The position numbers and the translations under genes are program-made. A stretch of DNA of 64,000 nt from contig OZ244723.1 of NCBI GenBank assembly GCA_965219325.1, positions 2,090,158 through 2,154,157 of the forward strand, read 5' to 3'. Positions 14,658 through 35,926 of the stretch are shown piece by piece. The notes beneath the pieces were generated by a model that was given only the letters and a program-made list of their open reading frames with translations, was not told the origin of the DNA and did not search any database. Numbering within the stretch: position 1 is the first letter of the stretch; each line of letters opens with the position of its first letter. The stretch comes from Dehalococcoidia bacterium. GTDB taxonomy: Bacteria; Chloroflexota; Dehalococcoidia; Lucifugimonadales; UBA2962.

Positions 14658-14749
14658 CAGCCACCACACCGGGCCTCGTCACGGCCTCAGGCCTTCCTTG
14701 ACACGGCTCAAATCGAAGTCCTAAATTTGAACGAGCCGAAAGGCTGAGG

Positions 14750-14778
14750 AGGACGGTCACGTGGCCGTCCCTTTTTTT
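14750..14778 (+). terminator. Intrinsic terminator-like hairpin
   Basis: GGACGGTCAC/GTGGCCGTCC stem followed by T7. Confidence 0.6.
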
Positions 14779-14799
14779 GCCATTTAGCAGGAGGCATGA

Positions 14800-15123: not shown

Positions 15124-15139
15124 GCTAGCCGCTGGCGGC

Positions 15140-15790
15140 TTAGCCATCACTCGCCATTAGGCCTGACGTTGCCAGCGCCTGATCGACCTGCACGCCAGCC
15201 GCCACAAGGTTCTTGAAGGCGGTTGCTCGACCGACCAGATCGTGAGCGTACAAGCCCGAGAACCCGAGTTCGACATCCGCTTCGAGCTTGACCATCAACT
15301 CGTGCTGTAGCAGCGCGGCCAGCGGCTGGACCGTCATCGTGAGATAGCGCCGGAAGGCCTCGCGCTGGGCGGTCCCGTCGGAATCGTCGAAGAGCGCCGG
15401 CGGTGTTCCGCAGGCGGCCAGCACGGCGTTAAATGAGTCCGTTCGTATCGTACGCATCGCCACCGGTGGATTCGGACCGAGCCGGGAGGCAATCCAAACC
15501 CGTTGTGGTGCCGAGGCTCGACCTTCGCCCCATCCGGCGTTGGCTGTCTCGATCAGCAGGGCCTTGCCACGGGCGGCCGCTATGTCTTTCTTGAGGTCTT
15601 TGAGCGGGTCGTCCTCGTCAGCCGTCACCACCATCTTGGGGAACGGCCAGCAGGTTCGCCAGCGGTCCTTTAGCCTCATCGGCTAGTGACCGCTCGACCT
15701 CGGATTGGAGCCGCGCCGTCGTGTGGGCCCAGCTCAACGGCCCGGTGCCGACGTAGCGTTGGCCAGGCGTCGATCCCCACCGCACGAATA
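15140..15790 (-). pseudogene. Phage portal-like gene remnant, frameshifted near 15620 and 5'-truncated by the MITE
   Basis: Upstream frame YVGTGPLSWAH...GPLANLLAVPQDGGDG joins DEDDPLKDLKKDI...VLAACGTPPALF...TVQPLAALLQHELMVKL, resembling portal GxSP and C-terminal motifs. Confidence 0.5.
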
Positions 15791-15791
15791 C

Positions 15792-15860
15792 TGACCTGCC
15801 CCCCTTTGCCGGTCCAGCTCACTAACAATACGGCTGGACCAGAATTTTGGGGGCAGGTCA
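15792..15860. mobile_element. 69-bp IS3-derived miniature element (MITE)
   Basis: TGACCTGCCCCC...GGGGGCAGGTCA terminal IRs; left half resembles the left end and right half the right end of the IS3 at 20636-21926. Confidence 0.75.
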
Positions 15861-17473: not shown

Positions 17474-17810
17474 TAGGTCAATTCACTGTTCGCTCCCCCA
17501 CATGGCGGGCGTTCATGCACTCCTAAGGCCCCGGCACAAGACTCCAGTGCGAACGGCCCGCCGTCTGCGAGCTTGGTTTAGGGTTCCCCACGTGTCCCTG
17601 TGACTCGACCAATAGCACAGGATAACTTTACGGGCTCGGTATTCCACCACGAGTCCCACGGGCCTAACCCTCTCAAGCATGCCACGGTGAGACACCAGCC
17701 TCCTCCAACCAGATGTTGCGCAGATTTCCTCGGTCAACATCGCAGCTGTTCCGCTTGATGTCCTGACCGCATCTGCCGCAGTGATAGGCTGATTCCCGAT
17801 CAATCTGGAC

Positions 17811-20171
17811 ATGCGCAAGTACCTCTTCCACTACGCACAGACACATTCTCCATTCACAATGTGCGGCATCCGGAGAACGCATCCGGGCCGCCTGAAGTGG
17901 CGCGGGCGGGACATTTCGCCGGATATCCTCGAACTCGGAACTTTACCTCCACCTAACGGCGAACTCTGTCCCGACTGTGCCTTCGACTACGCCCGTAGTC
18001 GGCACCAACCGCGCCGACCTCCGGTCAGACCTTCCAACAAGCCAGGCTCGGCCAAGTCAGGCTCAGGTAAGACGATTGCAGCAATGCTCGCCCTAGTGGC
18101 ATTGATCATAGCTGTGGTCTCGGTCTTCGCCGTGTATAACAACCGGAAAGGGATGGATGGCCAACGGGAAAACGCGGTTGTCCTGGCAGCAACGTCAACG
18201 TCCATACCCCGTGCGACGATTGTCCCACCGACAACCGCTTCCCCGGCCGACAGTTCAGAATCAGTCCCATCTTCGCCCGACTCGGCCACACCACCGCCGA
18301 CACCCTCACCTCTTTCGAATGCGACGCCGACTCCAACACCCACACCGACCCAGCCTGCAGACCTCAGGCACCTGGAAGAAAAGCTCTACATGCTCGAACT
18401 AGTCAACGCCGCCCGTGTACGAGCGGGCGTTGAACCGGTGGCGCTGGGCGATAACGCCGCCGCCCAACTACATGCAGAGGCAGCCTTGGCAAACTGTTTT
18501 TCCTCTCACTGGGGCATCGACGGCCTCAAGCCCTACATGCGCTACAGCCTTGCTGGCGGGTACCAGTCCAACGCAGAGAACATCTCCGGCCTCGGCTATT
18601 GCATTAAGTCCTCCGATGGCTACCGTAGCAACGGCACAATAGAGTGGGAAATTCGCGAGGCCATGAATGGCCTCATGGACAGTCCCGGCCACCGCGACAA
18701 CATCCTGGATAGGTGGCACAGGAAGATCAACATCGGCCTTGCCTGGGACAGCTACAACTTCTCGCTGGTCCAGCATTTCGAAGGAGACTACGTCGAATAC
18801 GACCGCCTGCCGGAGATCCAAGACGGTGTGCTGCGCCTGTCAGGAACAGCCAAGAACGGAGTGACCTTCGAGAGCGATGCGGATTTGGGAGTGCAGATCT
18901 ACTTTGATCCGCCCCCGCATGCCCTCACTCGGGGGCAGGTCTCAAGGACCTACTGCTATGACCAGGGAAGGCTCATCGGGGCCCTGAGACCGCCCCTGTC
19001 CGGCGATTGGTACTACGACGACCACAGCCTCGACCACTCCCACCAGCCATGTCCCGACCCCTATGACGTTTCCCCAGAGGCCTCTGCCCCTCTATCTCAC
19101 GACGAAGCGCTCAAGTATTGGGAGGAGGCATATGAGGCCAGTCTGACAACTCCAATCGAGCAACTGAGGGTGCCATGGATTACGGCCTCGGAAATGAGAG
19201 TCAGGGATCAGTCCTTCTCAGTGACAGCCGATCTGGCTAGCCTGCTCACCGATCACGGCGATGGGGTCTACACGGTCAGCATATGGGGCAGCATGGATGG
19301 AGAGGACGTCGTCATCTCCCAATACTCGATATTCCATAAAAATGTCGCGCCTGACAGTTACAGCAGCACCGACCAGGCTGGCTTTGCCGTTGTCAGCGCC
19401 GGCTGGAGTCACACCTGCGGGGTGAAGGCGAACGGATCAGTCGAATGCTGGGGAAGAAATCTTGGAGGTGAGTCGACACCGCCGGACGGTTCATTCATCT
19501 CAGTAAGCGCCGGGGCGACGCACAGTTGCGGGCTAAAGACGGACGGCTCCGTCGAATGCTGGGGGTGGGACCAACTTGGCCAGTCCACTCCTCCCAATGA
19601 CTCATTCATCTCAGTAAGCGCCGGCTTCGAGCACAACTGTGGAGTGAAGGACGATGGCGCGGTGGCATGCTGGGGAAGTGACAACGAAGGCCAGTCCACG
19701 CCGCCGGACGGTTCGTTCATCTCCGTCAGCGCCGGAGGCAATCACACCTGCGGAGTACAGACGAACGGCTCAATCGCATGCTGGGGGAGAGACGCCGATG
19801 GTGAGTCCACGCCGCCAAGCGGCACATTCGTCTCAGTCAGCGCTGGTTCGAGTCACACTTGCGGCGTAAAGACAGACGGCTCCGTCGAATGCACTAAGGA
19901 TGGGCAACGCAAGTCCAGCCCGCCCGGTGGCCCTTTTGCCTCTGTCAGCGCCGGAGTGAATCACACATGTGGCGTCAAAGAGGGTGGCACGGTGGCATGC
20001 TGGGGAAGTCACGCCCATGGTGAGTCGACACCGCCGGACGGTTCATTCATCTCAGTAAGCGCTGGCCAGGGTTTTAGCTGCGGGATAAAGACGGACGAGT
20101 CCGTCGAATGCTGGGGAAGCGACTACCATGGCCAGTCCACCCCCCCCAAGAGGGCAACGTCCAATCCATGA
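17811..20171 (+). CDS. Membrane-anchored protein: TM helix, Pro/Thr linker, CAP/SCP domain, seven RCC1-like repeats
   Basis: LELVNAAR...SHWG...ENI...MDSPGHRDNIL (CAP); VSAGxxHTCGxKxDGSVxCWG repeats. Confidence 0.85.
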   Translation: MRKYLFHYAQTHSPFTMCGIRRTHPGRLKWRGRDISPDILELGTLPPPNGELCPDCAFDYARSRHQPRRPPVRPSNKPGSAKSGSGKTIAAMLALVALIIAVVSVFAVYNNRKGMDGQRENAVVLAATSTSIPRATIVPPTTASPADSSESVPSSPDSATPPPTPSPLSNATPTPTPTPTQPADLRHLEEKLYMLELVNAARVRAGVEPVALGDNAAAQLHAEAALANCFSSHWGIDGLKPYMRYSLAGGYQSNAENISGLGYCIKSSDGYRSNGTIEWEIREAMNGLMDSPGHRDNILDRWHRKINIGLAWDSYNFSLVQHFEGDYVEYDRLPEIQDGVLRLSGTAKNGVTFESDADLGVQIYFDPPPHALTRGQVSRTYCYDQGRLIGALRPPLSGDWYYDDHSLDHSHQPCPDPYDVSPEASAPLSHDEALKYWEEAYEASLTTPIEQLRVPWITASEMRVRDQSFSVTADLASLLTDHGDGVYTVSIWGSMDGEDVVISQYSIFHKNVAPDSYSSTDQAGFAVVSAGWSHTCGVKANGSVECWGRNLGGESTPPDGSFISVSAGATHSCGLKTDGSVECWGWDQLGQSTPPNDSFISVSAGFEHNCGVKDDGAVACWGSDNEGQSTPPDGSFISVSAGGNHTCGVQTNGSIACWGRDADGESTPPSGTFVSVSAGSSHTCGVKTDGSVECTKDGQRKSSPPGGPFASVSAGVNHTCGVKEGGTVACWGSHAHGESTPPDGSFISVSAGQGFSCGIKTDESVECWGSDYHGQSTPPKRATSNP
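19392..20150 (+). repeat. Seven tandem RCC1-like units of about 111 bp
   Basis: Unit starts at 19392, 19503, 19614, 19725, 19836, 19944, 20055. Confidence 0.9.
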
Positions 20172-20268
20172 GCGTTCCCCGCTGGCAGAGAGTGTCACAG
20201 TTGCATTGCAAGGATGAAATGCCCGGCCCCTCAGAAATTTCGCCCCTCAGGGAAGAAGTTTGCGGGAT

Positions 20269-20635
20269 TCAAACGAAGACGTATAGGGGTTCGGAGGACT
20301 CAGCGCCTTTCCAAGCCCGTCCTAGGGGCCCTACTCTCGTGAGTCTTGCTAGGTGCGAAACCCTAAGGGGAACATCAACCCCTGCTCTGCCGATCTCCCT
20401 TTGTGCCAAGCGGAGGAATTGGCCCGCCGCAAGCTCCTCATCGAATACGACGAAGACCGAAGGCACGGCGCCATGATCGTCCATTGGCCGCTTCGACGAG
20501 TAGTACCGAAGGTACGGCGCAAGCCTCCTCGCCATTGTCACTGGCCTCACCGCCCGGCGCTCCCATTCCAGGAAGAACGGAAACGTCTCCCCTCCCCTCC
20601 GCAGGATGCCGAACGCGTCCGGATGTACGGAATGC
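20269..20635 (-). pseudogene. C-terminal remnant of a replication-relaxation family gene, cut by IS3
   Basis: Frame open up to the IS end: HPDAFGILRRGGETFPFFLEWERRAVRPVTMARRLAPYLRYY; no N-terminal part beyond the IS. Confidence 0.6.
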
Positions 20636-20731
20636 TGACCTGCCCCCCAATGCCGGTTGATCTGCTCCCCGAATTCTGACCCAGTCAGAATGTTAGTTTT
20701 GCGGGAAGTGAAAGGACAGGAGGATTGGTCG

Positions 20732-20998
20732 ATGAAGAGGTCCCGGTATACGCCAGAGCAGATAGCCTTCGCGCTGCGGCAGGCCGAGAACGGCCTGCCG
20801 GTAGTGGAGGTCTGTAGAAAGATGGGGATCGCCGAGCAGACCTTCTACCGGTGGAAGAAGAGGTACGTCGGCATGGGAGTGGCTGAGGTGAGGCGTCTTA
20901 AGGTCCTGGAGGAGGAGAACCGCAAGCTCAAGCAGCTGGTGGCTGACCTGAGCCTGGACAAGCACATGCTCCAGGACGTGCTGAGAAAAAAGCCCTAG
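20732..20998 (+). CDS. IS3 transposase OrfA
   Basis: MKRSRYTPEQI...GIAEQTFYRWKK...LEEENRKLKQLVADLSLDK. Confidence 0.92.
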   Translation: MKRSRYTPEQIAFALRQAENGLPVVEVCRKMGIAEQTFYRWKKRYVGMGVAEVRRLKVLEEENRKLKQLVADLSLDKHMLQDVLRKKP

Positions 20999-21009
20999 AG
21001 CCTGCTCAG

Positions 21010-21828
21010 ATGAGAGACCACGCCGAGTATCTACAGGTGGCCTACGGTTCGAGCGAGCGCCGCGCGTGCCAGGTGCTGACGCTTGGACGCTCGACCTGCA
21101 GGTACGAGAGCGTGGCCGCTGAGCAGGCTGCCCTGAGGATGAGGATCAGGGATCTTGCGGCATCGCGGGTTAGCTATGGATACAGGCGCATCCACGTGCT
21201 GCTGAGGAGGGAAGGATGGAAGGTGAATCACAAGAAGGTCTACAGGCTCTACCGCATGGAGGGGCTGCGGATACGGCCGAAGCGGCCCAGGCGACACGTA
21301 TCCGGCCAGAGGAGGGAGAGCAGGGTCGTGGCGTCGAGATCCGACGAGCGGTGGGCCATGGATTTCATGAGCGACGAGCTGTTCGACGGCAGGCGGATCC
21401 GGATCTTGACGATAGTGGATCACTTCAGCCGAGAGAGTCTGGCTATCGTGGTGGACGGAAGCCTCGGAGGACGTCGAGTGGTGGAGACTTTGGCCATGCT
21501 GGCGCTGGAAGGAAGGAAGCCTCGGACCATAGCCATGGACAACGGCCCCGAATTCACCTCCAAAGCACTGGACCAGTGGGCATACCTGAACGGTGTGGAG
21601 TTGGACTTCAGCCGGCCGGGCAAGCCCACTGACAACGCGATCGTAGAGGCCTTCAACGGCAGGCTCCGTGCCGAATGTCTGAACGAGAACTGGTTCCTGT
21701 CGTTGGACGACGCCAAGGAGAAGATAGAAGATTGGCGCAGGTACTACAACGGTGAGCGTCCCCACGGCGCCCTGGGAAACCTCACCCCGGAGACATTCGC
21801 CTCGAAGACACCGGCGGTTGTTGGATAA
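21010..21828 (+). CDS. IS3 transposase OrfB (integrase core)
   Basis: YGYRRI, WAMDFMSD, DNGPEFTS, SRPGKPTDNAIVEAFNGRLRAECLN, YNGERPH. Confidence 0.95.
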   Translation: MRDHAEYLQVAYGSSERRACQVLTLGRSTCRYESVAAEQAALRMRIRDLAASRVSYGYRRIHVLLRREGWKVNHKKVYRLYRMEGLRIRPKRPRRHVSGQRRESRVVASRSDERWAMDFMSDELFDGRRIRILTIVDHFSRESLAIVVDGSLGGRRVVETLAMLALEGRKPRTIAMDNGPEFTSKALDQWAYLNGVELDFSRPGKPTDNAIVEAFNGRLRAECLNENWFLSLDDAKEKIEDWRRYYNGERPHGALGNLTPETFASKTPAVVG

Positions 21829-21940
21829 GTCGCAAAACTAACATTCCACCTGGTACAGAAAATGGGGCAAGCTCACGGTCCAGCTTAGTAACATTCCAGC
21901 CGGGTCAGATTTTGGGGCGCAGGTCAGGTTTCCTTACAGG

Positions 21941-21980
21941 TCGATTACCAGTTCGAAAGTTCGCAATACGGTCTCGCCGA
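21941..21980 (+). repeat. 40-bp direct repeat, copy 1
   Basis: TCGATTACCAGTTCGAAAGTTCGCAATACGGTCTCGCCGA, identical to 26588-26627; next bases AGGTAC vs GGGTAC. Confidence 0.95.
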
Positions 21981-22205
21981 AGGTACGCTGCTTCCCGCTC
22001 GCTCGGCAAGGGCGGTGGGCCCAGCGTTCGTCGCGCCCGACGGCTGTCGCCCTTGGCCGTATCGGCGCCGAATCGTGGTCGGTGCGCATTCGCGCGGGGC
22101 CGTGTGGCGCGAGGGCACGGGCTGAGGCTCCACGTTCGCGGATACGGTCCTGGCAAGCCCCCCCTTGAGTGCGACCCCGGTCCGTTCGTTAAGATAGCGG
22201 GGTAC

Positions 22206-22268
22206 GCCCCCGTAGCTCAGCGGATAGAGCACCGGTTTCCTAAACCGGGTGTCGCGCCGGGGGCGCCA
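22206..22268 (+). pseudogene. tRNA-Arg(CCT) lacking the inner T-arm (63 nt, about 13 nt missing)
   Basis: Intact acceptor GCCCCCG/CGGGGGC, D-arm, CCGGT-TTCCTAA-ACCGG anticodon arm and CCA; GTGTC-GC|GC where the T-stem/loop should be. Confidence 0.85.
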
Positions 22269-22443
22269 CCTCACCTCGCGCCACGGACAGTGCGCTGCCC
22301 GCCTCCGCCCGCAGGGTCTATGGCCTCATCCTTTCAGCTGCGCTCCCGCCCCGCCTGCGGCACCTGAATCCGCGCCACCGGCTGCCCGGGCGCCCGCCGG
22401 TCCCCTGGAGAATGTCCCGGGCCGCGGGATTTCCGCCCTGCCC

Positions 22444-22680
22444 TCAGTCCGGCCTCGCCCCGTTGCCTCCTGGCCTCGCCTTCCAGGAGATCTCGATGGT
22501 GACCTTGCCTCCTCTGGAGGGCTCCTTGCCCTTGACGTCGAGCTCTACTGACCTGGTCGGCCTGGTGGAAAAACCCTTGCCGAACCTGATGCTCCCGGTT
22601 GCTAGGCCCAGCGCTATGGCGCTGATGCTCTCGGCGGACCTCTCGGGACTCAGTGTCCTCTTGAGCTTGGCCGTCGCCAT
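22444..22680 (-). CDS. Amphi-Trp domain protein
   Basis: 78 aa; ...ALGLATGSIRF...VELDVKGK...KVTIEISW matches the amphi-Trp pattern. Confidence 0.65.
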   Translation of the reverse strand: MATAKLKRTLSPERSAESISAIALGLATGSIRFGKGFSTRPTRSVELDVKGKEPSRGGKVTIEISWKARPGGNGARPD

Positions 22681-22689
22681 AGATGCGGC

Positions 22690-23462
22690 CTAGGCCAGGG
22701 CCGGAACACCGACGAGTGCCCCGCGCTCTCCCTCGGCGGCCGGGGCGGGGCGGCTGCGGTCGGCCGCCATGCGCTGCTTGACGATCGATTTGTGGGCCTT
22801 GCTGATCCGCACCAGGGAGTCGATCCGGGGGGCCGTCTCCGTCAGGGTCGTGCGCTCCGCAAGACACCGCTTGAGCCCCTGCTACGTCAGCTCATCCAGC
22901 GCGAGAACGGTGCTCTGCACCCCTGTCTGGGGCCAGACATGCGCGTCCGAACCGCCCACAACGGGCAGGTCGAACTCCGCCGCAAGTCGCCGTATCTTCG
23001 GCTCGACCCGGGAGAGCGCCACATCCTTGCCGTTTACCTCGAGGGCGTCAAAGCGCCCCAGGTGCCTGCGGCCCACCTCGACGGTGCTCTTGCCCTGCTG
23101 GGTTGGGTGGGCGGCGATGATCACCAGGCCGGCCGCCCTGGGCGGAAGGATCGATCGAACAGGCCCATCTGCTCGATGTCGCCGATCAGCACGATGTCCA
23201 CCCTCTCTGCAACGGTCAGCTCCGCGCCGGTAAGGACGTTAAAGCCCTCCCCCACGGAAAAGTGGCCGCCGCGGTAGGTGTACCTGCAGAGTAGCTCGCC
23301 GAGTATTGCACAGTAGTCTCCCGTGTGAAGGTGCTCGGTAAGTGCAAAGCCCGAAAGGCCCATCCTCCTCGCCCGTTCCACGATGGACTCGAAATGCTGG
23401 AGGCTGAACTCTTCGGCCTTGCAAACCTTGGCGTGTACGTGAAGGTCCGCCCTGATCGTCAT
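22690..23462 (-). pseudogene. PHP-family phosphoesterase with a frameshift/deletion at about 23139 and an in-frame TAG at 22882-22884
   Basis: DLHVH, ALTEH, LTGAEL in the first frame; LVIIAAHP, DALEVNGKD, GGSDAH in the second; after the TAG the frame continues QGLKRCLAERT...RISKAHKSIVK to TAG at 22690. Confidence 0.8.
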
Positions 23463-23520
23463 CGAGTCGCGTCTTCTCCTTGGCTCAGTCGGCCTATCCC
23501 CTCACGTTAGCAGCGGCAGA

Positions 23521-23546
23521 TTAACAATGCATGACAGAATTGTTAA
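23521..23546. promoter_or_regulatory. TTAACAAT-N10-ATTGTTAA palindrome with a CTGTCAT Pho-box-like core on the minus strand
   Basis: AT-rich island upstream of the PHP/amphi-Trp genes. Confidence 0.4.
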
Positions 23547-23805
23547 ACGAAGTCTAATTGGAAATGGTTTAGCCGGCTTCCAAGAAATCGGCTGACCGCG
23601 GTTCAATGGCCGTTCCCATGTTGCCACGGACGTGTTGGGCATTGTCACCTCCCTTTGGCCGGGGTGCGGCGGGCGCCCGGGTGCGGGGGGCAGGTCGGGA
23701 GGGGGCTGTCAGGGGCGCGGTATCAGGCTCGAGGCGGCCAACCAGGCCGCCCCTAAAGGATCGGTTAACGGCAGCCGGCTCCCGGCGGACGCTCCGCTCG
23801 TCGGG

Positions 23806-24990
23806 TCAGGGGACGAACAGTTCGCTCTCGGCCAGCGCCTCTTCCTCGCTGTTGCCGCCAGCTATGAGCACCCTCCCGTCGGATAGCACCGCGGCGGCGT
23901 GGCGGTACCTGGCCTGTACCATGTCAGGCGCCGCTGTCCAGGACATCGTGGCCGGATCGAAGATCTCGGCCGAGTTCTTAACGCCCAAGCCGCCGGTGAC
24001 CAGCACCCGCCCGTCTGACAGCAGGATGGCAACGTGCTCTGCGCGTGGCTGCCGGGTCTCGCCGGCCCGGGTCCACGAGGAAGTCGCCGGATCGAAGATC
24101 TCGGCCAACGTCTTTTTGCCCGTGCCGCCGACCACCAGGACACGGCCGTCCTTGAGCACGGTCGCCGTGTGGAGCACCCTGCCCTCGGCCATGTTACCCG
24201 CCTCGGCCCAGCTGTCGCTCGACGGATCGTACACCTCCGCAGAGTCCGTATACGGTCCGTCCAGCTTCCCGCCCCCCGTGACGAGGGCCCTCCCGTCCAG
24301 CAGGGTTGTGGCCGTGTGCAGAGTGCGCTCGGTGCTCATCGGGGCCGCCGGCGTCCATTGGCCGGTCGCCGGGTCGTAAATCTCTACCGAGTCGAGCCTC
24401 TTCAGCCGCTTGGTATCGACGCCCCCCGTAAGGACGACGCGCCCGTCGGGCAGGGCGGTCCATGCCGCCTCCGCCCGCCCGGTGTTGATCGAGCCGGTTG
24501 AGTTCCAGGTACCCGAGTCAGGGTCCCAGATCTCGGACGTGCGTATGGCCTCGAATCCGGTCAGTTCCGTGCCGCCCGCAGCCAGCACTGAACCGCCAGG
24601 CAGGACGGCCAGCAGGTGCTTTCGGCGGCCCTCGGCCAAGTCCCCGGTGGAGGTCCACTCGCCCGTCGCCGGGTCGTATATCTCCGCGGAGGTGTGTACG
24701 AGCCCTCGGTGGCTGCCCTTTCCCCAGCCTCCGGCGGTCAGCACCCTGCCGTCGGGAAGTGTGACCATGGCGTGGTACTGGCGGTCGTTGCCCATGGCAT
24801 CGGTTCCGACGAACTCCCCCTCCCCTCCGCTCGGTGCGGGCGTGTCTTCGGCCGGCGGTGCCGCGGCGGGCTCGGTGCCAGGCCCTGCCGAGCAGGCGGC
24901 GAGCGGGATCATACCCGCTGCAAGGACCAGGAAAAGAACCAGTGCGGTCCGCCACCCGGGAGTGCGGTTCTGCGGAGCAAGCGGTCTCAC
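23806..24990 (-). CDS. Kelch-repeat beta-propeller lipoprotein
   Basis: LAAC lipobox; six R.xH.A..L.DGRVLV.GG...AEIYDPATG.W repeats. Confidence 0.88.
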   Translation of the reverse strand: MRPLAPQNRTPGWRTALVLFLVLAAGMIPLAACSAGPGTEPAAAPPAEDTPAPSGGEGEFVGTDAMGNDRQYHAMVTLPDGRVLTAGGWGKGSHRGLVHTSAEIYDPATGEWTSTGDLAEGRRKHLLAVLPGGSVLAAGGTELTGFEAIRTSEIWDPDSGTWNSTGSINTGRAEAAWTALPDGRVVLTGGVDTKRLKRLDSVEIYDPATGQWTPAAPMSTERTLHTATTLLDGRALVTGGGKLDGPYTDSAEVYDPSSDSWAEAGNMAEGRVLHTATVLKDGRVLVVGGTGKKTLAEIFDPATSSWTRAGETRQPRAEHVAILLSDGRVLVTGGLGVKNSAEIFDPATMSWTAAPDMVQARYRHAAAVLSDGRVLIAGGNSEEEALAESELFVP

Positions 24991-25068
24991 GACGGGGATA
25001 GTCTACGCGAGTGCCGAGCCGCGCCCGGGGATCGGCCGTTCGCTGCCCGGCGTTCGCGGGAAGGACCG

Positions 25069-26007
25069 ATGTCCGAGTACGTGGCCTATCTGAACGGGGA
25101 ATGGGTCGACTCCGACGAGCTCAGGATCGACCGCAGGGACCGCGGTTTTCGCACTGGCGACGTCGTGTTCGACACGGCGGGCACGTTCGACGGGGTCATA
25201 TTCGACACGCGCCTGCACGCAGAGAGGCTGATCCGGTCCCTAAAGTACGCCCGCATCGACTCTGGGCTGACCACCGACGAGTGGGAGGCGGTCATGCAGG
25301 AGGCGGTAGACAGGAACCAGCACCTCTTGCCCTCGGCCGGGGACTTTTACATCTACCCGTTTATCACCAGGGGCATGGGCCATCCGGCACCGGCGTCGGG
25401 CCCTCCCACCGTCGCCTGCGAGGCCTATCCCTTGTACTTTGGACGGTGGGCCGAGTGGTTCGACCAAGGCGTGAAGGGTGCCATACCCAAGGCGCGCAGC
25501 CTGTCGAGTGATCAGATCGACGCCAAGATCAAGCACCAGAGCCGGATGAACATGAACCTGGCCGAGATGGAGGCCTGGGATATCGACGAGGGCGCCTACC
25601 CGGTCATGCTCGACCTCGCCGGCAATCTCACCGAGGGCACGATCAACTCGGTGTTCCTGGTCTCTGGCGGGGTCCTGAAGTGCCCGACCGACACCGTCAT
25701 ACTCCAGAGCCTGTCGCGCTGGACGGTCCGGGACCTTGCGGGACAGCTGGAAATACCGGTGGTCGAGGAGGACCTTCAGCCCTACGACCTGTACACGTCT
25801 GACGAGGCCTTCCTGGCCTTTACCGGCCCATGTGTGCTGCCCTTGACCACCGTGGACCGCCGCGAGATCGGAGACAGCAGGCCCGGCCCCATCACAAGGC
25901 AGCTGCTCGCCGCATGGTCCGAGCGCGCCGGCGTGGATATCGTGGGCCAGGCCCAGAGACACGGCCAGCTGGCCAGTGCCGGGCATCCCGATGCCCCGCA
26001 GGCCTAG
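25069..26007 (+). CDS. PLP-dependent aminotransferase class IV (IlvE/PabC/DAT-like)
   Basis: YLNGEWV, DRGF..GDVVFDT, H..RL..S, AKIK (PLP Lys), LTEG...VFLV, DEAFL, PGPIT; the 463-aa ORF in the track is over-extended upstream. Confidence 0.88.
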   Translation: MSEYVAYLNGEWVDSDELRIDRRDRGFRTGDVVFDTAGTFDGVIFDTRLHAERLIRSLKYARIDSGLTTDEWEAVMQEAVDRNQHLLPSAGDFYIYPFITRGMGHPAPASGPPTVACEAYPLYFGRWAEWFDQGVKGAIPKARSLSSDQIDAKIKHQSRMNMNLAEMEAWDIDEGAYPVMLDLAGNLTEGTINSVFLVSGGVLKCPTDTVILQSLSRWTVRDLAGQLEIPVVEEDLQPYDLYTSDEAFLAFTGPCVLPLTTVDRREIGDSRPGPITRQLLAAWSERAGVDIVGQAQRHGQLASAGHPDAPQA

Positions 26008-26245
26008 ATTATTCGCTCCCCCGCCCGTGCGCATGCCGCGGCCAGGGGAGCAAGATCGGGCCCGGGCCAATTGCAGGTGAACTCGGGGAACTGAGAGGGT
26101 GGGGCGCCCCAACTGGCACTATGGTGATCACCCGCCAGCGTGCACCTGCGTGGCTTGCACGCAAGCCACCGCCAGGCGGGGGTAGTGGCGCTGTTGCGGC
26201 GGCTGCTCGCCCAACTCCGTATTCGCTAGGCGGCAGGAGTCGCCC

Positions 26246-26446
26246 CTAGTACTTGGAGGACTCTACCTCCGGCAACTTGCCGGTCACCAGGAAGATGGCG
26301 CGCTCCGCGACGTTGGTGGCCCTGTCGGCGATCCTCTCCAGGTCGTGGGAGACCCACAGCAGGTAAGTGGCGCGTTTGACAGTGCCAGGATCCTCGATCA
26401 TGAACATCAACAGCTCGCGGTAGACTTGCTCGTAGATCCGGTCCAC
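26246..26446 (-). pseudogene. phoU: C-terminal fragment of PhoU
   Basis: VDRIYEQVYRELL.FMIEDP...ATYLLWVSHDLERIADRATNVAERAIFLVTG; upstream sequence unrelated. Confidence 0.85.
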
Positions 26447-26587
26447 CAAAGGGGATTCGAACCGAATTTCAAAGCTGGTGCCTGTGATCGCGGGCACCAA
26501 GACAAGCCTGCTTGGGCGACGCAAGCGGAGTCGGGTCGTTTGACCGCGATTAACGCAACTTGTACTGTCGACTAGATCCCGACCATC

Positions 26588-26627
26588 TCGATTACCAGTT
26601 CGAAAGTTCGCAATACGGTCTCGCCGA
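26588..26627 (+). repeat. 40-bp direct repeat, copy 2
   Basis: Identical to 21941-21980. Confidence 0.95.
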
Positions 26628-26683
26628 GGGTACCAGCGTGTACCGTATGAAGAAACCGGTGCTGTCGAGGGATTCAGGCGCGC

Positions 26684-27463
26684 ATGGAAGGGAAAGCATT
26701 GTCAGGATGGTTCGCAGGAAAAGTCGCACTTGTAACTGGCGGCGCATCCGGCATCGGTAGGGCGACGGCCCTGGCCTTCGCTCGTGAAGGGGCCAAGACG
26801 GTCATCTCAGACCTCGATGCCGACGGTGGCCACGAGACTGTCCATATGATCAAGGACTCCGGAGGAGAAGCTACATTCGTCACAGTGGACGTAACGATGT
26901 CAGACCAGGTCGAGGCCCTAGTCAACCGGGCGGTCCGTACCTATGGACAACTCGATTGCGCGTTCAATAATGCAGGTCTTGAGCGGGAACTCTCCAACCC
27001 CGACGTGCGATTCGACGAGGAGACGTTCCAATCTGTGATCGACGCTAACCTCAAGGGTGTCTGGCTCTGCATGAAGCACGAGATCGCACAGATGCTGGAA
27101 CAGGGCTCCGGCACGATCGTCAACACCTCGTCGGTCGCGGGCCTGGTTGGTATACCCAACCAACCGATCTACGTTGCCAGCAAGCACGCGGTATCCGGAC
27201 TGACCAAGTCGGCCGCCGTCGAGTACGCCGGCAGGGGTATCCGCATCAACGCTGTATGTCCGGGTCTCGTCGACACGCCGCTGTTGGAACGTATCTATGC
27301 GAGCAACCCAGGGCTGAAATCGGAAGCCGACAGCTGGCAACCGATTGGGCGCACTGCCCAGCCCGAGGAGATCGCTGAGGCCGTCATCTGGCTCTGCTCG
27401 GATATGGCCTCGTTCGTGGTCGGTCATATGATGACGATCGATGGGGGACTGGTCGTTCGGTAG
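26684..27463 (+). CDS. Short-chain dehydrogenase/reductase
   Basis: TGGASGIG, NNAG, YVASKH, INAVCPG, DGG. Confidence 0.93.
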   Translation: MEGKALSGWFAGKVALVTGGASGIGRATALAFAREGAKTVISDLDADGGHETVHMIKDSGGEATFVTVDVTMSDQVEALVNRAVRTYGQLDCAFNNAGLERELSNPDVRFDEETFQSVIDANLKGVWLCMKHEIAQMLEQGSGTIVNTSSVAGLVGIPNQPIYVASKHAVSGLTKSAAVEYAGRGIRINAVCPGLVDTPLLERIYASNPGLKSEADSWQPIGRTAQPEEIAEAVIWLCSDMASFVVGHMMTIDGGLVVR

Positions 27464-28437
27464 GGCCCATGCCTTGGGGCGCGCCAGACCGCCTGGGCTG
27501 GCCAGCAAACGCCTAACGATGCTCCGCCGTCCGCGGACGGCTGGACAGGAGTCCAGTCGGCCCAGCAGATGCCAATGACGCAGACGGTGAATCACATGTC
27601 GACTATTGTGCCGAATGTTCACGGTACATGAGGCTCAGTCGCCTGCGAATGTCGGTAAAGACCTCTCCTGTCTAACGCGACAGGATCGTGTCGCTCTGAT
27701 CTGCACCGCTCGACTGTACCGCGAACTCCGCGTCGAACTAGAAGTCCAAATGCGGGACCGACATTGGTGGGCGTGCGCTGGTCGGACATCGATGCCGAGC
27801 TCTTCGTGGCGGGAGTCGGAGTTATTGGGAGTTAAGGACCCGGGGATGTCCATTTGTAGGCGCGGATTTCGAGTCGTGGATGTTCAACCACGCGCTAGAT
27901 CCGAACATGTACGGGACACGTTTCGAGATTAAGGCGAGTCAACGGGCGCCAAGTGCTGTCCGCGATCAAGAGAAGAGTGGGGCAGGATGGGGCATCCGAC
28001 GGCAGTGCGGAACTCCTCACCGCAAATGAGAAAACCAGTTGACCTCGCTCGGTTGCCTATGTCGAAGCGAAAGACTTTGAGACGATCAAAAAGGAGTTTC
28101 AGAATTCAATCAATTTGGCTGTTCGGTAGACCAGTATAGGTTCAGATTGTTCCGGACATTACAGCCCTCGCCGAACCATCAATTGTGCCTGCGCTACCCA
28201 ACATGCTAAAGGTTGTAGCGGACGACGCCGCAGGTTCCAAAGGTCATAGCGACACCCCAGTTCAAAGGTTCTGCCCAAAGTCAGGTTAGGGGGGCCACAC
28301 TGATTTCTTGCGGGGGCGTAGACGGCGGCTTCGCAGAGTTCTGTCCCCCGCTCTGCTAGACTGTTGCGCTCAAATCGACGTGCCCTAGCATGCTGGGGCC
28401 TGCTATGTGAATATCAGTTGTCACGGGAGACTGTGCC

Positions 28438-29316: not shown

Positions 29317-31173
29317 CTAGGCCGTGGAGTCTGCTGGCAGCGTCATTGTGAACTCTGTGTACTCGCCGTGGACCGTGTCGACGACGAGGTCCCCTCCGAG
29401 CCGCCGCAATACATCAGCGGCAATGGGAAGTCCCAGGCCGGCTCCGACTACACCTTCACGGGTCGAAAAGAAGGGGTTAAATATCTGCCCCACAACTTCA
29501 TCGGGGATCCCCGGCCCATTGTCACGGACACGCACCTCCACCAAACCATCCGACAAGCGGCTGGTCACAGACAGCTCAGGTTGATGGTCACCGTTTTGCG
29601 CATCCTTTTTTTGCCTTAGCGCATAGCAGGCGTTTGAAACAAGGCCTACGACAGCCTCGCTAAAGTCATTGGCTACAAGGGACACATCGCCCACGGAGCG
29701 GTCAAAGTCAAAGTCGGGCTCCACGCTAAAGTCCCTCCACTCCGCGTGAAAAGCCTCGCAAGCCAACCGGACGGCGGATCGCAACGTCCCGTTCAAGTCG
29801 GTGAGTTCCGGGTCCCCTCCGACTACTCCCAGACCCCGCATTCGCTCGACAATTGCCAGAGCGCGGCCACCGTTGGACTGCACGCGCTCCAGGCTGGTGG
29901 CCAACTCCTCGCTGATGTCATCAAGGAGGCTGGCATCATCTTCTGTCATTCGATTACGGTAGCTTGTCAGCATTCCCATCAGTTCGCGCTGAAGTTCTAA
30001 GGATCCCTCGGTAAAGTTCTTAACGAAGTTCAACGGATTACTGATCTCGTGAGCCACGCCGGATACCAGCTCCCCCAAGGCGGCCAGCTTCTCCTGTGCC
30101 ACCAGCCGGACCTGCATCCGCTGTAACTCCTCGTTCACCTCACGCAACTCTCCATAGAGGCGTTCAACCAGATTCAGCCGCTGCACTTCAAGCGCCTGCT
30201 GGCGCCACACCTCGAGAGCACCGGCCAATTCCCCGATTTCATCCCGGCTTACCTCAGGGATCGGAGTTTCGAGATCGCCGGACGCCATGCCGCGCATACG
30301 CTCCGACAGCCTAGACAGACGACGCACAACACCCTGCCCTACCCAAAGCCAGGCGCTCAGGGTAGCCGCTAGGACGCTTGCAACACTGATTACCGCCAGG
30401 ATGATGCGACCCTCGTCAAAACTGCGGACCGACGACTCAAGCACTACCTGCGACTCTGCCCGGGCGGTCACCAATAGACCAGTGACCGAGTCCTCCAAGG
30501 CCACACTTCGCTCATCGAGAGCAGCAGCAAGTCCATTTGCTTGAGTTCGAAGCGCCAGTTGCTGACCACGGACCGCATACACCTGTTCACCTAGCGGCAG
30601 TATTGCGATCTGGTCCCAGAGGCGATCAAGCTCTGGCTGGTCAGAAGCCAATAGCGCTCGCCTCAACAATGCACGGGACTCACCATCAACCGACAACCCA
30701 TCTATTGCGGCTCCAAGTTCAGTCGCGGCTACACCATTGTCTTGAACCGCAGTTTGGTAAACCGCCAGTTGATCAATGACTCCGACCAGTGCATATGCAC
30801 CTTCATGCACCTCATTCGCTGCCGGTACCAAGGCAGGGACAACGCTGGCAGCGGTCAGGTAATTTTCCAACCGCTCCAGCGAGGCCGTCGCGGTGTCGGT
30901 AGAGACCCCTACCGCGTTTTGGACCATGAGCCTGAGGCCTAACGACAAGAGTCGCTCTGCTTCCCGAGCAGCAGCCCAGGATGCATCCAGAGCTGGCTCC
31001 GCCTCGGTCTGGACACGGTGGTTGAGGTCCCCGCTCCGCTCAAAGTAATACACTGCCACAGCGCTGGAACCTAGGGTCAGCAGCACCGCAAATCCCAGAG
31101 CGAGGTATAGTCGGGCACCTATGCGGCGCCATGGGTCAAGAAGAAAGCCCATACCGTCTCCACTTCTGTTCAA
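29317..31173 (-). CDS. Sensor histidine kinase (TM-periplasmic-TM-HAMP-HisKA-HATPase)
   Basis: DEIGELA (HAMP), GVAHEISNPLNFV, NACYA, DNGPGIP, FNPFFST, GAGLGL. Confidence 0.93.
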   Translation of the reverse strand: MNRSGDGMGFLLDPWRRIGARLYLALGFAVLLTLGSSAVAVYYFERSGDLNHRVQTEAEPALDASWAAAREAERLLSLGLRLMVQNAVGVSTDTATASLERLENYLTAASVVPALVPAANEVHEGAYALVGVIDQLAVYQTAVQDNGVAATELGAAIDGLSVDGESRALLRRALLASDQPELDRLWDQIAILPLGEQVYAVRGQQLALRTQANGLAAALDERSVALEDSVTGLLVTARAESQVVLESSVRSFDEGRIILAVISVASVLAATLSAWLWVGQGVVRRLSRLSERMRGMASGDLETPIPEVSRDEIGELAGALEVWRQQALEVQRLNLVERLYGELREVNEELQRMQVRLVAQEKLAALGELVSGVAHEISNPLNFVKNFTEGSLELQRELMGMLTSYRNRMTEDDASLLDDISEELATSLERVQSNGGRALAIVERMRGLGVVGGDPELTDLNGTLRSAVRLACEAFHAEWRDFSVEPDFDFDRSVGDVSLVANDFSEAVVGLVSNACYALRQKKDAQNGDHQPELSVTSRLSDGLVEVRVRDNGPGIPDEVVGQIFNPFFSTREGVVGAGLGLPIAADVLRRLGGDLVVDTVHGEYTEFTMTLPADSTA

Positions 31174-32391
31174 TTGTCACAGAGTAACGCTCTACATCTG
31201 CGCGAAGCACGTCGGTTCGGGGGGACGAGCGCCCGGCGCACCAATCAGTCGCAGCATTGCCGGTCACTGCCTCCATCTCGCCCAGAAAGGCAAGAGAATC
31301 GCTGGTGCCGTGCATATTCCGGAGCACCATACCAAAACGGAGGGTCAGCATCATCCACTGTGTCGTCTACACCAGTGGAATGGAAACCGCAGCGACGCAA
31401 TCTTCGGCAGCAGCCCAAATCACCTAAACTTCTACAACAGGTGTGATATCGCTTGGAATTTAGTGCCGCGCGTCAATAGATTGCTCTAGAGCCTTCTCGC
31501 CCTCGACTTCCGATCATTGTTCCCTTCAATCATACGGAGGAATAACAGAGATAGATGCAAGCGCATAAGATGATTAAATATTCCTCTCCAAAGTGCATGA
31601 ATCGAACTCCAAACACTCCAAGTCTGTCCGCCTAGGCTTCGATAACGACCGCTGTAGAGATGGTGCCCAAACTTCGAATAGCATCTCTCACTGGTCAATG
31701 TTTCATAAACGCGCTTATCTTAGGCTATATACGTCATCCGAGACGGGAAACACTCGACAAACACTGGCAAGGGACCGAAGGCGGTCGGTTGAAAGTGACA
31801 TGCGGCGACTGGTGGTCTAGCCACGACGTACAGTAGGGCTATTGTCTGCGCCTCCGATGGGAAGAGCGCTTGGCACTAAGAGTGCGCCTTCGCTTGCGTC
31901 ATGGACTCAAAAACTTTGATTTGGATACCCAACACGGTAGCCGAAGTGCCGGCTGCATGCCGGCGCAGCGAGGCTCCAAATGAGAAGGGCGAATCGGCTC
32001 GGCGCCGTGATTTCGGCGAATACGTTTTCTTTCGCCGAGTGTGGAGATGAAGCGGGGTTGGCTTGGTTAACGGCGAAGTTGTAGGCTGAATGGATCTCGC
32101 CAAGTCCGCCATGCGGGACCAACCGGCCCGAAGGCGCGACTGTGGAGACTTGCCGGACATTTCACCACACGCCAGAAGTTTTCGGCCAAGCGACCGATGC
32201 ACCGTCCCCTACGTGGACGGACTCAAGGCTCGGCTTGGAAGATGAGAAGAAGGCCCAAGTTGAGCGGCAGAGCCCAAGACGAGTAACTCACATGCCAAGG
32301 ACGCCCTAGCCATTCCAAGTGATTCGGAACAGAGTAGACGCAAAGTCTCAGCCTTAGGAGTTAAGCGCAAACGCGCCCAGGAGAACAGTCA

Positions 32392-33870
32392 ATGACGGAA
32401 ATAAAGCAAGTTTACGCTCCGGAGTTCCCCAGAAGATTGGAATGGCTCAATTCCGAGCATCCAGTCACGATTGAGAGCTTGAGGGGAAAGTTGATAATTC
32501 TTGACTTTTGGACGTATTGCTGAATCAACTGCATGCACGCAATTCCGCAGTTGGCGGAACTGGAGGCAAAGTATCGAGACGTGGTGGTCGTAGTCGGTGT
32601 GCACTCTGCCAAATTCACGCAGGAAAAGTCGTTAGACAATGTGCGCCAGGCAGTGCTGCGGTACGACATCGAGCACCCAGTGGCCAACGACTCTGGCTTT
32701 GAGGTGTGGCGCCGGTGGGGCGTGCGCGCCTGGCCGACCTTCATGTTTATAGGGCCGGAAGGCACCGTCCTCGGCAAGCACGAAGGCGAGTTCGACAAAG
32801 ATGCTTTGGACAGGGCAATTGCAGGCTTGATAGCCGATTTCGACGCAAAGGGGTTGATCGACCGCACCCCAATTCATTTCAAGTTGGAGCGCGACAAGAT
32901 GTCGGATGGGCCGCTCTCTTTCCCGGGCAAGGTTATGGCCGACAAAGGGTCAGACACGCTCGTGGTAGCTGACTCCAATCACAACCGCCTCGTCGTAGCC
33001 GGGCTTGATGGACGAGTCCGTGCAATCGTTGGGTCTGGCGCACCCGGACTTACAGACGGGGATTTCGTTTCGGCGCGATTCCGCGACCCACAGGGCCTAG
33101 CCCTTGCCGGGGACCAGATCTACGTTGCTGACACGAAGAACCACGCAATCCGCCGGGTTAATCTCTCTGAGGGTAATGTCATCACGCTTGCGGGCACTGG
33201 ACAACCGGCTCCCAGGTTCAGTACAGGCGGTCCAGCCAAGTCGACCCCAATTAAATCGCCGTGGGATGTCGCTCTCTGCGAAACCAACCTCTACATTGCG
33301 ATGGCCGGTTTCCACCAAATATGGCGGCTCGACCTAGTGTCGGGATTCATTGCGCCGCATGCCGGCTCCGGTCGGGAGAATATCGTGGACGGTCCCCTGC
33401 TCTCGGCCCAGTTGGCCCAGCCGAGCGGCATCGTGAGCGAAGGGTCTAAGCTCTATTTTGCCGACAGCGAGACCAGCGCCATCCGAACAGCCGACATGGA
33501 CGCCGCAGGCGTCGTGTCAACAATCGTCGGCGAGGACCTGTTCTCGTTCGGTGACCTAGACGGCCCCGGTAAGAGCGCAAGGCTGCAACACCCTATAGGC
33601 GTGGACCTTGCAGGGGGATTCTTGTACCTGACGGACACTTACAATAACAGGATCAAGAGGATTGAACTGGTTACCGGCGAAGTGACTACCCTCTTCGGGA
33701 CGGGGCAGCCAGGCCTGGAGGAGGGATACGGCAAAGGGGCAAGTTTCCACGAGCCAGGAGGCCTTTCTGTAGCCGGAGACCTGATCTTCGTCGCCGACAC
33801 CAACAACCACACCATACGCGTGGCAGACATCGTTACCGGTTCTGTTTCCACGCTTGCGGTCATTCCCTAG
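32392..33870 (+). CDS. Thioredoxin-like plus NHL-repeat protein (NHLRC2/SOQ1-like), probable selenoprotein with TGA at 32521-32523
   Basis: GGAG RBS and ATG at 32392 give an open frame to LDFWTYC-TGA-INCMH, in frame with the 445-aa ORF; [15 protein letters not shown]; NHL repeats ([23 protein letters not shown]). Confidence 0.88.
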
Positions 33871-33880: not shown

Positions 33881-35926
33881 TTGCCTAATCGACTCGCTGC
33901 CGAGAGCAGCCCCTACCTTCTTCAACACAAAGATAACCCGGTGGACTGGTTCCCCTGGGGTAGAGAAGCGCTTGAAGAAGCTAGGAGACAGGATAAGCCG
34001 ATCCTGCTGAGTATCGGATACTCTGCCTGCCACTGGTGTCACGTCATGGAGCGCGAATCGTTTGAAGACGACTACATCGCGGCTCAAATGAATCGCAACT
34101 TCATCTCCGTCAAGGTAGACCGGGAGGAACGTCCCGACATCGATTCCATATACATGACGGCTGTGCAAGCTCTGGCCGGGCACGGGGGGTGGCCTCTGAC
34201 CGTCTTTTTGATGCCGGACGGCAAGCCCTTTTATGGAGGTACCTACTTCCCTCCGTCGGACCGCGGCGGAATGCCCGGGTTTCCCAGGATTCTCGATGCC
34301 GTCTCCCATGCCTATCAGCACAAGAAGAGCGACCTCGAGCTATCCTCTGAGCAGCTCGTGGCCCGGATCCGTCAGACAACGCTTGCCGGCAGGTCTCGCG
34401 AACTACTTGCCGACGCCAACCTGTCTTCGGCCTACGTAAATCTTTCAGCGCAAGCCGACCGGGAAATGGGTGGCCTGAGTGGCGCACCCAAATTCCCGCA
34501 GCCGATGATCTACGAGTTCCTGCTCCGTTACTACCTGCGAACCGGAGACAGTGAGGCACTGGAAATAGTGACCAGGACACTGGACGCAATGGCGCAGGGA
34601 GGGATTTACGATCAGGTTGGCGGCGGCTTCCACCGTTACTCTACGGACGCGCGATGGCTGGTTCCTCACTTCGAGAAAATGCTCTACGACAACGCCCTGC
34701 TAGTTCGGCTGTACCTTCACGCCTTTCAGATAACCGGAACCCCTGCATACCGTCGTGTAGTCGATGAGACTCTTCGCTATGTCCTCAGCGAAATGATGAC
34801 TCCTGATGGCGCCTTCTATTCCGCGCAAGACGCAGACAGTGAAGGAGTGGAAGGCAAGTTCTTCGTGTGGAGACCCGAGGAGCTGTGCGAAGTCTTGGGC
34901 ACAGCCGCAGGTCAGCGCATGGCCGCATATTTCGATGTGTCGGATGCGGGCAATTTCGAGGGCTCATCGGTCCTCAATTTCACCGAAGAGCTTCGCGCGT
35001 CCCTAAAGCGGGATGAAGCTCAGGTCCTGCAGTTCATCGCCGACGCCAAAGCGAAGCTTTACGAGGCCCGCTCGCGCCGAGTGCCGCCCAGTACCGATGA
35101 CAAGATCCTGACCGCCTGGAACGGGTTGATGATCGCGGCCTTGGCGGAGGCGTCGGTGGTGCTAGAGAACCAAGAGTACGCGGATGCGGCCGCCAAGTGT
35201 GCGGATTTCCTCTTGACATCGCTTCGGCGCGATGGGCGACTCTTGCGAACTTACAAGTACGGAGTGGCCAAACTCAACGGCTACTTGGAGGACTACGCCT
35301 TTGCCATAGACGGTCTCCTAACGCTGCATGAGGCCACCCTCAAGGCGCGTTGGCTCTCCGAAGCGATCTGTTTGGGGCAATCGATGGTCGAACTGTTCTG
35401 GGACCGTGGCACTGGCCAGTTCTATGACACGGGCTCGGATCACGAAGACCTCATCGTCCGGCCCCGCGATGTCTCGGACAATGCAATTCCGTCGGGCAGT
35501 TCGGCGGCCTGCTCTGTGCTGCTAAAGCTCGCCATATACACCGGCGAGTCGGGCATGAGAGACATGGCTGTGGGGGGCATCCGCTCGGCCCGGGAGTTGA
35601 TGTTGCAGGTGCCAGCTGGAGCCGGTCACTGGCTTGGCGGATTGGACTTTTACCTGAGTGCTCCAAGGGAGGTCGCCATCGCTGGAGACCCAGGGGACGA
35701 CGCCACCCGTGCACTGCTTGCCGAGACCTACAGACACCATTTGCCCAATAAAGTGGTCATGGGAGTGACCGGCAAGGGTGCGATCACCAACTTGCCTCTT
35801 GCAAGGGGGCGGGGACAATTGGGAGGCGTAGCCACTGCGTACGTGTGCGAGAACTACGCCTGCCAGTTGCCCACATCCGACCCAAGAGTGCTGGCACAGC
35901 AGTTGGCCGATGGCCGAGCGCCTTAG
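33881..35926 (+). CDS. Thioredoxin-domain protein YyaL/SSP411 (DUF255 plus alpha-alpha barrel)
   Basis: [59 protein letters not shown]. Confidence 0.93.

Follow-up and report, generated by a model that had tools for sequence, protein, structure and literature searches.

A predicted selenocysteine form of the NHLRC2/SOQ1 thioredoxin–NHL family in Dehalococcoidia

Main finding

A gene of a soil Dehalococcoidia bacterium, at positions 32392-33870 of a 64,000-nucleotide stretch of contig OZ244723.1 (the whole stretch analysed here, hereafter the window), very probably encodes a selenoprotein of the NHLRC2/SOQ1 family, in which UGA codon 44 would be decoded as selenocysteine (Sec) through a Sec insertion sequence (SECIS) hairpin, yielding a selenol-based oxidoreductase. 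Recoding of UGA-44 is strongly supported by comparison with homologues; that Sec is the residue inserted, and that the genome carries selABCD, we infer. The core of the proposal, a UGA-encoded Sec at the first Cys of a CxxC motif with a SECIS downstream, was already present in an original prediction made for this DNA, and is now backed by TGA codons in homologues, by conservation of the region upstream of the TGA and by a hairpin that covaries.

An in-frame TGA at the active site

The reading frame opens with ATG at 32392-32394 and reaches the motif DFWTYC at codon 43 without a stop. The next codon, at 32521-32523 (+), is an in-frame TGA, followed directly by INCMH, and the frame then stays open as far as a TAG at 33868-33870, giving 492 codons including the TGA (Table 1). 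Re-reading of the coordinates confirmed this frame as it was first described, together with the predicted hairpin TTCCGC-AGTTG-GCGGAA beginning 19 nt after the TGA. In the alignments with SOQ1 and NHLRC2, U44 falls on the second C of CCINC, in agreement with the placement predicted originally, on the first of the two CxxC cysteines. The Shine-Dalgarno sequence ahead of the ATG has a counterpart in the relative L204, which carries AAGGAGAG at the equivalent position. The mechanical list of open reading frames (ORFs) contains only 32533-33870, a frame of 445 residues that starts four codons past the TGA and has lost the CxxC; the original prediction had rightly remarked that the active site is dropped in this way.

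The identical protein is found on a 108-kb ENA contig, on a 3.99-Mb contig in ENA and NCBI and on a Logan short-read contig, and the TGA and the hairpin are present in all three, which makes four assemblies with the window. The window itself comes from a long-read metagenome assembly, in which a sequencing or assembly error might be suspected. We find it barely credible, however, that the TGA is such an error, or that it reflects a genome-wide change of code in which TGA has become a sense codon. Four assemblies, which derive from different samples and include short-read Logan contigs, agree on the TGA, and it is seen in hundreds of contigs from other projects, while TGA is the commonest true stop in the window, terminating 16 of the 34 ORFs that have Pfam support. 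A scan of the window for further in-frame TGA codons in a redox-type context gave no convincing candidate.

A short member of the NHLRC2/SOQ1 family

Matches to the Pfam families Thioredoxin_8, AhpC-TSA and Redoxin span residues 21-137 of the window protein, and NHL repeats follow. The assignment to an NHLRC2/SOQ1-like protein made in the original prediction is borne out by alignments to the structures of SOQ1 (7DJJ; residues 9-488, E 5.7e-128) and NHLRC2 (6GC1; residues 8-490, E 7.4e-115). For the propeller, the corresponding matches are to the SOQ1 NHL construct 7DJM (residues 169-488, E 4e-70) and to NHLRC2 6G7W (residues 173-490, E 3e-64). The family motif WTYC-C-INC is present as WTYC-U-INC, and the order of thioredoxin domain and then NHL propeller is that of the family. 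The C-terminal β-stranded domain of NHLRC2 and SOQ1 is missing, the window protein ending at residue 492; most Sec forms have 490-505 residues, and many Cys homologues have 620-710, with a longer C-terminus. Because no C-terminal domain follows the propeller, the window protein is, as judged from its alignments, a short two-domain subtype of the NHLRC2/SOQ1 family. Its N-terminus has no signal peptide. NCBIfam has no selenoprotein model for the thioredoxin–NHL family, and the best match there, ResA, lies far under its cut-off.

Pairing of Sec and Cys, and constraint on the upstream codons

A protein search returned thousands of homologues, the best 120 of which were inspected. WTYCCINC is found in 92 of them; 26 are about 445 residues long and start at or just past the Met that follows the UxxC motif, and none contains a U. 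When the aligned codon was read in the DNA of 80 genome loci, TGA stood opposite U44 in 13 and TGC or TGT in 62, the latter from Acidobacteriota, Armatimonadota, Planctomycetota and others. The 13 TGA loci are from six Dehalococcoidia metagenome-assembled genomes (MAGs), three Chloroflexi/Chloroflexota, one Chloroflexia and three Candidatus Fervidibacter, one of which is the complete PD1 chromosome. JGI metagenomes from soil, sediment, freshwater and marine samples were also searched with a degenerate DNA pattern encoding W-T-Y/F-C-TGA-I/V-N-C, which matched at least 120 contigs, and 116 true family members were among the matches listed. For the original prediction, a lack of Sec machinery in the genome together with a lack of homologues with TGA at this site would have implied a nonsense mutation; the pairing of TGA with TGY that it proposed is instead evident among the 80 genome loci, and TGA is carried by 13 of these and by 116 metagenome contigs.

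The TGA is also shared by relatives with 75-93% identity to the window protein. Two of these, L204 (a circular contig of 2.65 Mb) and L205, at 75-76% identity, have TGA at the same codon, and in both the automatic calls give the N-terminal piece of 42-43 residues a small gene of its own (L204 9860-9991, L205 9863-9991), which ends at the Sec-TGA directly before the truncated main ORF. A selenoprotein that has been overlooked can be recognised by such a separate N-terminal small gene ahead of a truncated ORF.

The frame 5' of the TGA is open and conserved in the metagenome family members. Across 109 unique Sec-form sequences, a set from which contig L122 was left out since it has stops, the median ratio of nonsynonymous to synonymous substitution rates is 0.22 for the 35 codons before the TGA and 0.27 for the 40 codons after it. 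No in-frame stop interrupts these 35 codons, although the two alternative frames have 142 and 54. The upstream codons are thus, on this comparison, under purifying selection.

A covarying, SECIS-type hairpin confined to the TGA forms

The window hairpin is made up of the arms TTCCGC (32543-32548) and GCGGAA (32554-32559) around the loop AGTTG (32549-32553). The loop begins 25 nt after the UGA and has G at its second position, followed by U, and the hairpin agrees in all four respects with the bacterial SECIS (bSECIS) model of Zhang and Gladyshev (summarised in PMC13188914). A lower helix may extend the core (Table 1); it is not conserved among homologues.

The significance of the hairpin comes from the comparison of homologues, not from the single sequence. 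In Sec forms the segment P-Q-L-R is almost always encoded by CCG-CAG-UUG-CGG, which folds as NNNCCGC-AGUU-GCGGNNN; counted from the U of UGA, this hairpin occupies offsets 21-38, with arms at 21-27 and 32-38. All seven positions pair in 73 of 116 unique Sec forms and at least six in 87 of 116, compared with at least six in none of 61 Cys forms. The outer pairs covary, being C-G, U-A or U-G at one position (45, 26 and 24 sequences) and U-A, C-G or G-C at another (68, 16 and 9), and a compensatory example is provided by UUUCCGC/GCGGAAA in Dehalococcoidia and CUGCCGC/GCGGCAG in Fervidibacter. If the 3' arm is slid by 1-3 nt, the paired fraction falls from 0.85 to 0.36-0.67. Codon choice follows the same division: TTG encodes the Leu in 99 of 116 Sec forms and 7 of 61 Cys forms, and CCG encodes the Pro in 99 of 116 and 14 of 61, respectively. 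Synonymous sites within the hairpin of the Sec forms are, by these counts, frozen.

Minor Sec lineages (Table 1) read P-E-L-E-A-L-E (or P-E-L-D/E-A-L-E), P-V-L-A-R-L-E or P-D-L-R-K-L-E after the UxxC, and have different hairpins at the same distance, such as CCAGAGC-UGGAC-GCUCUGG, with a G within the first two loop positions. The occurrence of several hairpin types at one distance implies that the SECIS, as read from these sequences, has been remodelled several times inside the family. To our knowledge Rfam holds no general bacterial SECIS model, and it was therefore expected that no SECIS family was matched there, either at gathering score on the whole window or by E-value on 32480-32620.

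Could the TGA be simply a nonsense mutation, leaving a pseudogene, or only the 445-residue protein translated from ATG 32533 without an active site? Gene callers and NCBI do annotate a protein of 445 residues, as an 'alkyl hydroperoxide reductase' (MDD9995399.1), and the available sequence shows no Sec machinery. Such an origin is nevertheless highly improbable, given that TGA is held at one codon in more than 125 diverged sequences with 50-93% identity, that the 35 codons upstream are selected and free of stops, and that the covarying hairpin is confined to TGA forms. There is, moreover, no Shine-Dalgarno motif in the sequence upstream of ATG 32533, and the truncated protein would lack both redox residues of the thioredoxin fold. 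The TGA codons of the homologues, the constraint on the upstream codons, the agreement of multiple assemblies and the use of TGA as a stop lead us to exclude a pseudogene, a sequencing error and a change of code.

Selenocysteine machinery and the identity of the inserted residue

Several observations weigh against decoding of UGA-44 as Sec. Taken alone, the window hairpin is statistically unremarkable, with a fold z-score of -0.93: when the 57 nt that follow the TGA are shuffled, 8% of the resulting sequences have a stem of at least 6 bp with loose bSECIS geometry, and such a stem follows 17% of all 1,726 UGA trinucleotides in this window of ~60% G+C. It also departs from the main form of the family, which has 7 bp and the tetraloop AGUU, in that its loop has 5 nt, its stem has 6 bp and its 3' arm lies one base out of register; the window clade reads P-Q-L-A-E-L-E in this segment, and its hairpin is, on comparison, a derived variant of the family form. 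The 64-kb window, as covered by Pfam searches of 30 larger ORFs and by precomputed Pfam assignments of genes between 29 and 43 kb, contains no selA, selB or selD; its one tRNA gene is for Arg, and it has no tRNA-Sec. Nor are there sel genes or a tRNA-Sec in the 10 kb past its 3' end or in the ~1.4 kb past its 5' end, the latter reached through short Logan contigs only. The loci of relatives, L179 excepted, are likewise without selA, selB, selD and tRNA-Sec. Finally, the formate dehydrogenase alpha subunit encoded in the same window (57433-60180) is a Cys form (TRLCHAPSV), and the genome therefore does not use Sec wherever possible.

The exception, the marine contig L179, is informative. When E. 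coli SelA, SelB and SelD sequences were used as tblastn probes of the window and 200 loci, they matched only EF-Tu (L070 and L202) and one true SelD, that of L179, which NCBIfam confirmed (TIGR00476, 394 bits; cut-off 125). This selD (5622-6668, -) lies 3.3 kb downstream of a Sec-form thioredoxin–NHL gene (9950 to ~11430, -) and on the same strand. It is preceded by TAGGAGG and has an in-frame TGA of its own (H-C-A-G-U-A-A-K), which falls on the known Sec position of SelD. The best 120 homologues of the L179 protein, compared as proteins only, are all 306-328 residues long, consistent with gene callers cutting at an N-terminal TGA. A further point on the negative side is that none of these 120 best matches comes from the source contig or its close relatives, the whole set being related to the marine query.

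In view of the absence of Sec genes from the sequence covered around the gene, the hairpin might instead assist recoding of the UGA to a residue other than Sec, either Cys brought by a tRNA with a UCA anticodon and a SelB-type factor, a route that Mukai et al. reportedly proposed in 2016 for some bacteria, or Trp or Cys through near-cognate reading. We think a residue other than Sec very unlikely. The hairpin conforms to the consensus for bSECIS of SelB type, U44 stands where Sec and Cys classically replace one another in a CxxC motif, and one carrier contig, L179, encodes a Sec-containing SelD, a protein for which we know of no role other than the supply of selenophosphate. There is also no evident gain in encoding Cys by UGA when TGY serves the sister lineages. 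Selenoproteins and an unusual 8/4 tRNA-Sec were reported early for Chloroflexi (PMC1794560, PMC5389517), and the unusual structure of these tRNAs (PMC5389517) can be counted in favour of a non-Sec residue. Against it, Dehalococcoidia MAGs in BSepDB have 46-49 selenoprotein genes, among the ten richest bacteria and thus among the most selenoprotein-rich on record (PMC13326102).

If UGA-44 is decoded as Sec, the product would be a cytoplasmic protein of 492 residues, made up of a TlpA/DipZ-like thioredoxin domain and, after it, an NHL β-propeller. During its translation the hairpin at 32543-32559, whose loop begins 25 nt past the UGA, would act as a bacterial SECIS and bring SelB-GTP-Sec-tRNA(Sec) to the ribosome while it pauses at this codon, and Sec would enter at the N-terminal nucleophilic Cys position, converting C-C-I-N-C to C-U-I-N-C. 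Sec44 could then attack a substrate disulfide or another oxidised sulfur species, with Cys47 resolving the selenenylsulfide and the propeller offering a docking surface for the substrate. Sec normally replaces only catalytic redox Cys, and it is from this rule and from the thioredoxin fold that we infer both the redox chemistry and the role of the propeller.

Table 1. Features of the selenoprotein gene and its surroundings (positions in the window), with contigs of the minor Sec lineages.
Feature	Position or contigs	Strand	Description
Shine-Dalgarno AGGAG	32379..32383	+	Read from sequence; spacer to ATG 32392 of 8 nt
Full selenoprotein coding sequence (predicted)	32392..33870	+	492 codons including UGA-44, stop TAG; end-to-end SOQ1/NHLRC2 alignment
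TlpA/DipZ-like thioredoxin domain	32416..32838	+	Residues 9-149; Pfam Thioredoxin_8 8.5e-17, AhpC-TSA, Redoxin; DipZ 2HYX E 1e-22
TGA read as selenocysteine, U44 (predicted)	32521..32523	+	First residue of UxxC (C-U-I-N-C); Sec/Cys pairing with homologues
Extended SECIS stem, lower helix (tentative)	32534..32568	+	Predicted fold -13.1 kcal/mol
SECIS core hairpin (predicted)	32543..32559	+	6-bp stem UUCCGC/GCGGAA, loop AGUUG; -7.7 kcal/mol
NHL-repeat β-propeller	32896..33855	+	Residues 169-488; Pfam NHL 3.9e-27
YyaL/SPATA20-type protein with DsbH-like thioredoxin domain	33881..35926	+	681 residues; Pfam Thioredox_DsbH, Thioredoxin_7
Minor Sec-form lineage members	L088, L092, L093, L106, L115, L141, L144-L146 and others; L124, L130, L151, L152, L201; L110, L116, L159, L166, L193		

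Origin of the Sec form and genomic neighbourhood

In a rough neighbour-joining tree, calculated with the SECIS-encoded residues masked and without support values, every Sec form falls in one Chloroflexota-type clade, within which the Cys forms L070 and L074 are nested. The Fervidibacter Sec forms (L058, L067 and L068) group with the Chloroflexota sequences and have a SECIS core of the Chloroflexota type, CUGCCGC-AGUU-GCGGCAG; other Armatimonadota (L010-L012, L017, L025, L032 and L033) have Cys forms and lie elsewhere in the tree. This placement, together with the near-identical SECIS core, suggests a single origin of the Sec form, followed by horizontal transfer to Fervidibacter along with its SECIS.

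The YyaL-like gene starts 10 nt past the stop of the selenoprotein gene, with which it is probably co-transcribed, and is itself followed by glycolate-oxidase-like genes; the upstream neighbour is a histidine kinase (29317-31173, -). The YyaL-like neighbour is kept in the window clade (L204 and L205). As a general conserved partner it holds only in part, since it lies directly downstream at 14 of 69 Sec-form loci and at none of 58 Cys-form loci, and any functional link is on that account lineage-specific.

Two other regions of the window deserve mention. The formate dehydrogenase cluster (55525-60180, +) comprises a NuoF-like subunit and then the FdhA-type subunit of 915 residues, and adjoins an aldehyde:ferredoxin oxidoreductase (53126-55009), two MoeA genes and a formate-tetrahydrofolate ligase (46797-48431). 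Relative to the 3.99-Mb contig (L002), the window also has an insertion of 14.3 kb at 13987-28287 (flanks 13976-13986 and 28288-28298), directly 3' of the tRNA-Arg(TCT) gene (13909-13985), where an 11-bp alignment overlap suggests a direct repeat. Its cargo includes a transposase-like ORF of helix-turn-helix type (15916-17439), an IS3-type integrase-core ORF (21010-21828), a CAP/RCC1-repeat protein (17811-20171) and a Kelch-repeat protein (23806-24990, -); the insertion, also present in L001, resembles a strain-variable island at a tRNA gene. Inside this island, at 22206-22265 (+), lies a tRNA-like sequence of 60 nt (Rfam tRNA, 42.7 bits; no ARAGORN call) with a CCA end; its acceptor stem, D arm and anticodon arm (CCT, Arg) appear complete, but the T arm is seemingly missing.

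Novelty and significance

The original prediction stated that Sec forms of NHL-thioredoxin proteins had been reported from marine metagenomes. This could not be confirmed: the GOS and Sargasso papers and the selenoprotein catalogues of 2022 and 2026 are without NHL, and the entries of the two catalogues do not name NHL, NHLRC2 or SOQ1. Literature searches for selenoproteins or selenocysteine with NHL repeats, NHLRC2 or SOQ1 in a bacterial context, and for Fervidibacter and selenium, found nothing relevant. With a Pfam Redoxin match of 28 bits for the window protein, some overlap with catalogued families is possible, and thioredoxin-domain fragments from short reads may already have been recorded under some generic name. 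We see an even chance that this is an uncatalogued and widespread Sec form of the NHLRC2/SOQ1 thioredoxin–NHL proteins, found in soil, sediment and marine samples and truncated in gene calls, which apparently arose in Chloroflexota and passed with its SECIS to Ca. Fervidibacter.

Why should a Sec form of this family matter? We know of no established substrate or chemistry either for NHLRC2, which underlies FINCA disease, or for SOQ1, which controls qH, a form of non-photochemical quenching. Where Sec and Cys naturally alternate at the first position of a CxxC motif, this is a standard sign that the residue is a redox catalyst, and the Sec form thus points to the first Cys of the NHLRC2/SOQ1 CxxC as a working redox catalyst. 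If the proposal is correct, it would be the first strong genetic argument for real redox catalysis by this motif, and F. sacchari PD1 would provide a cultivable bacterial model. The Sec form would also provide a functional handle on NHLRC2 and SOQ1. The Chloroflexota selenoproteome, already very large in some Dehalococcoidia, would gain a family, and the gene would serve as a clear-cut case of four codons (P-Q-L-R as CCG-CAG-UUG-CGG) being constrained by a SECIS, which has seemingly moved with its gene between phyla. The public gene calls found for the TGA forms all begin past the active site, so that the whole clade stands recorded without its catalytic motif, an annotation that could now be corrected.

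Comparison with known systems

Among bacterial selenoproteins, the commonest are proteins of thioredoxin fold with a UxxC motif, whose SECIS lies within the ORF. The catalogued UxxC proteins of TlpA/redoxin type resemble the window protein in having UxxC in a thioredoxin fold, a SECIS within the ORF just past the UGA and widespread Cys homologues. Their entries (representatives MGB1650493.1 and HEU0032618.1) are set apart from the thioredoxin–NHL family by their descriptions only, in which no NHL propeller is named. The prototype bacterial SECIS, that of E. coli fdhF, is not related in sequence to the window hairpin.

For the thioredoxin domain (residues 9-149), the closest solved stand-alone relative is the C-terminal domain of Mycobacterium tuberculosis DipZ (PDB 2HYX), which differs in being part of a membrane-anchored CcdA fusion, in having Cys and in lacking an NHL propeller. 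Human NHLRC2, the FINCA disease protein (PDB 6GC1 and 6G7W), is a cytosolic protein that shares the two-domain core and the CCINC motif; it has Cys instead of Sec, and at full length it includes a further C-terminal domain with no counterpart in the window protein. Arabidopsis SUPPRESSOR OF QUENCHING 1 (SOQ1; PDB 7DJJ and 7DJK) has the same succession of thioredoxin-like domain and NHL propeller, and its DFWTYC-C/U-INCMH motif is identical except that Cys stands where the window protein has its predicted Sec. SOQ1 has in addition an N-terminal HAD domain and a C-terminal domain, some 160 residues of 7DJJ past the propeller being unmatched, and it resides in the thylakoid lumen, whereas the window protein has no targeting signal and ends right after its propeller.

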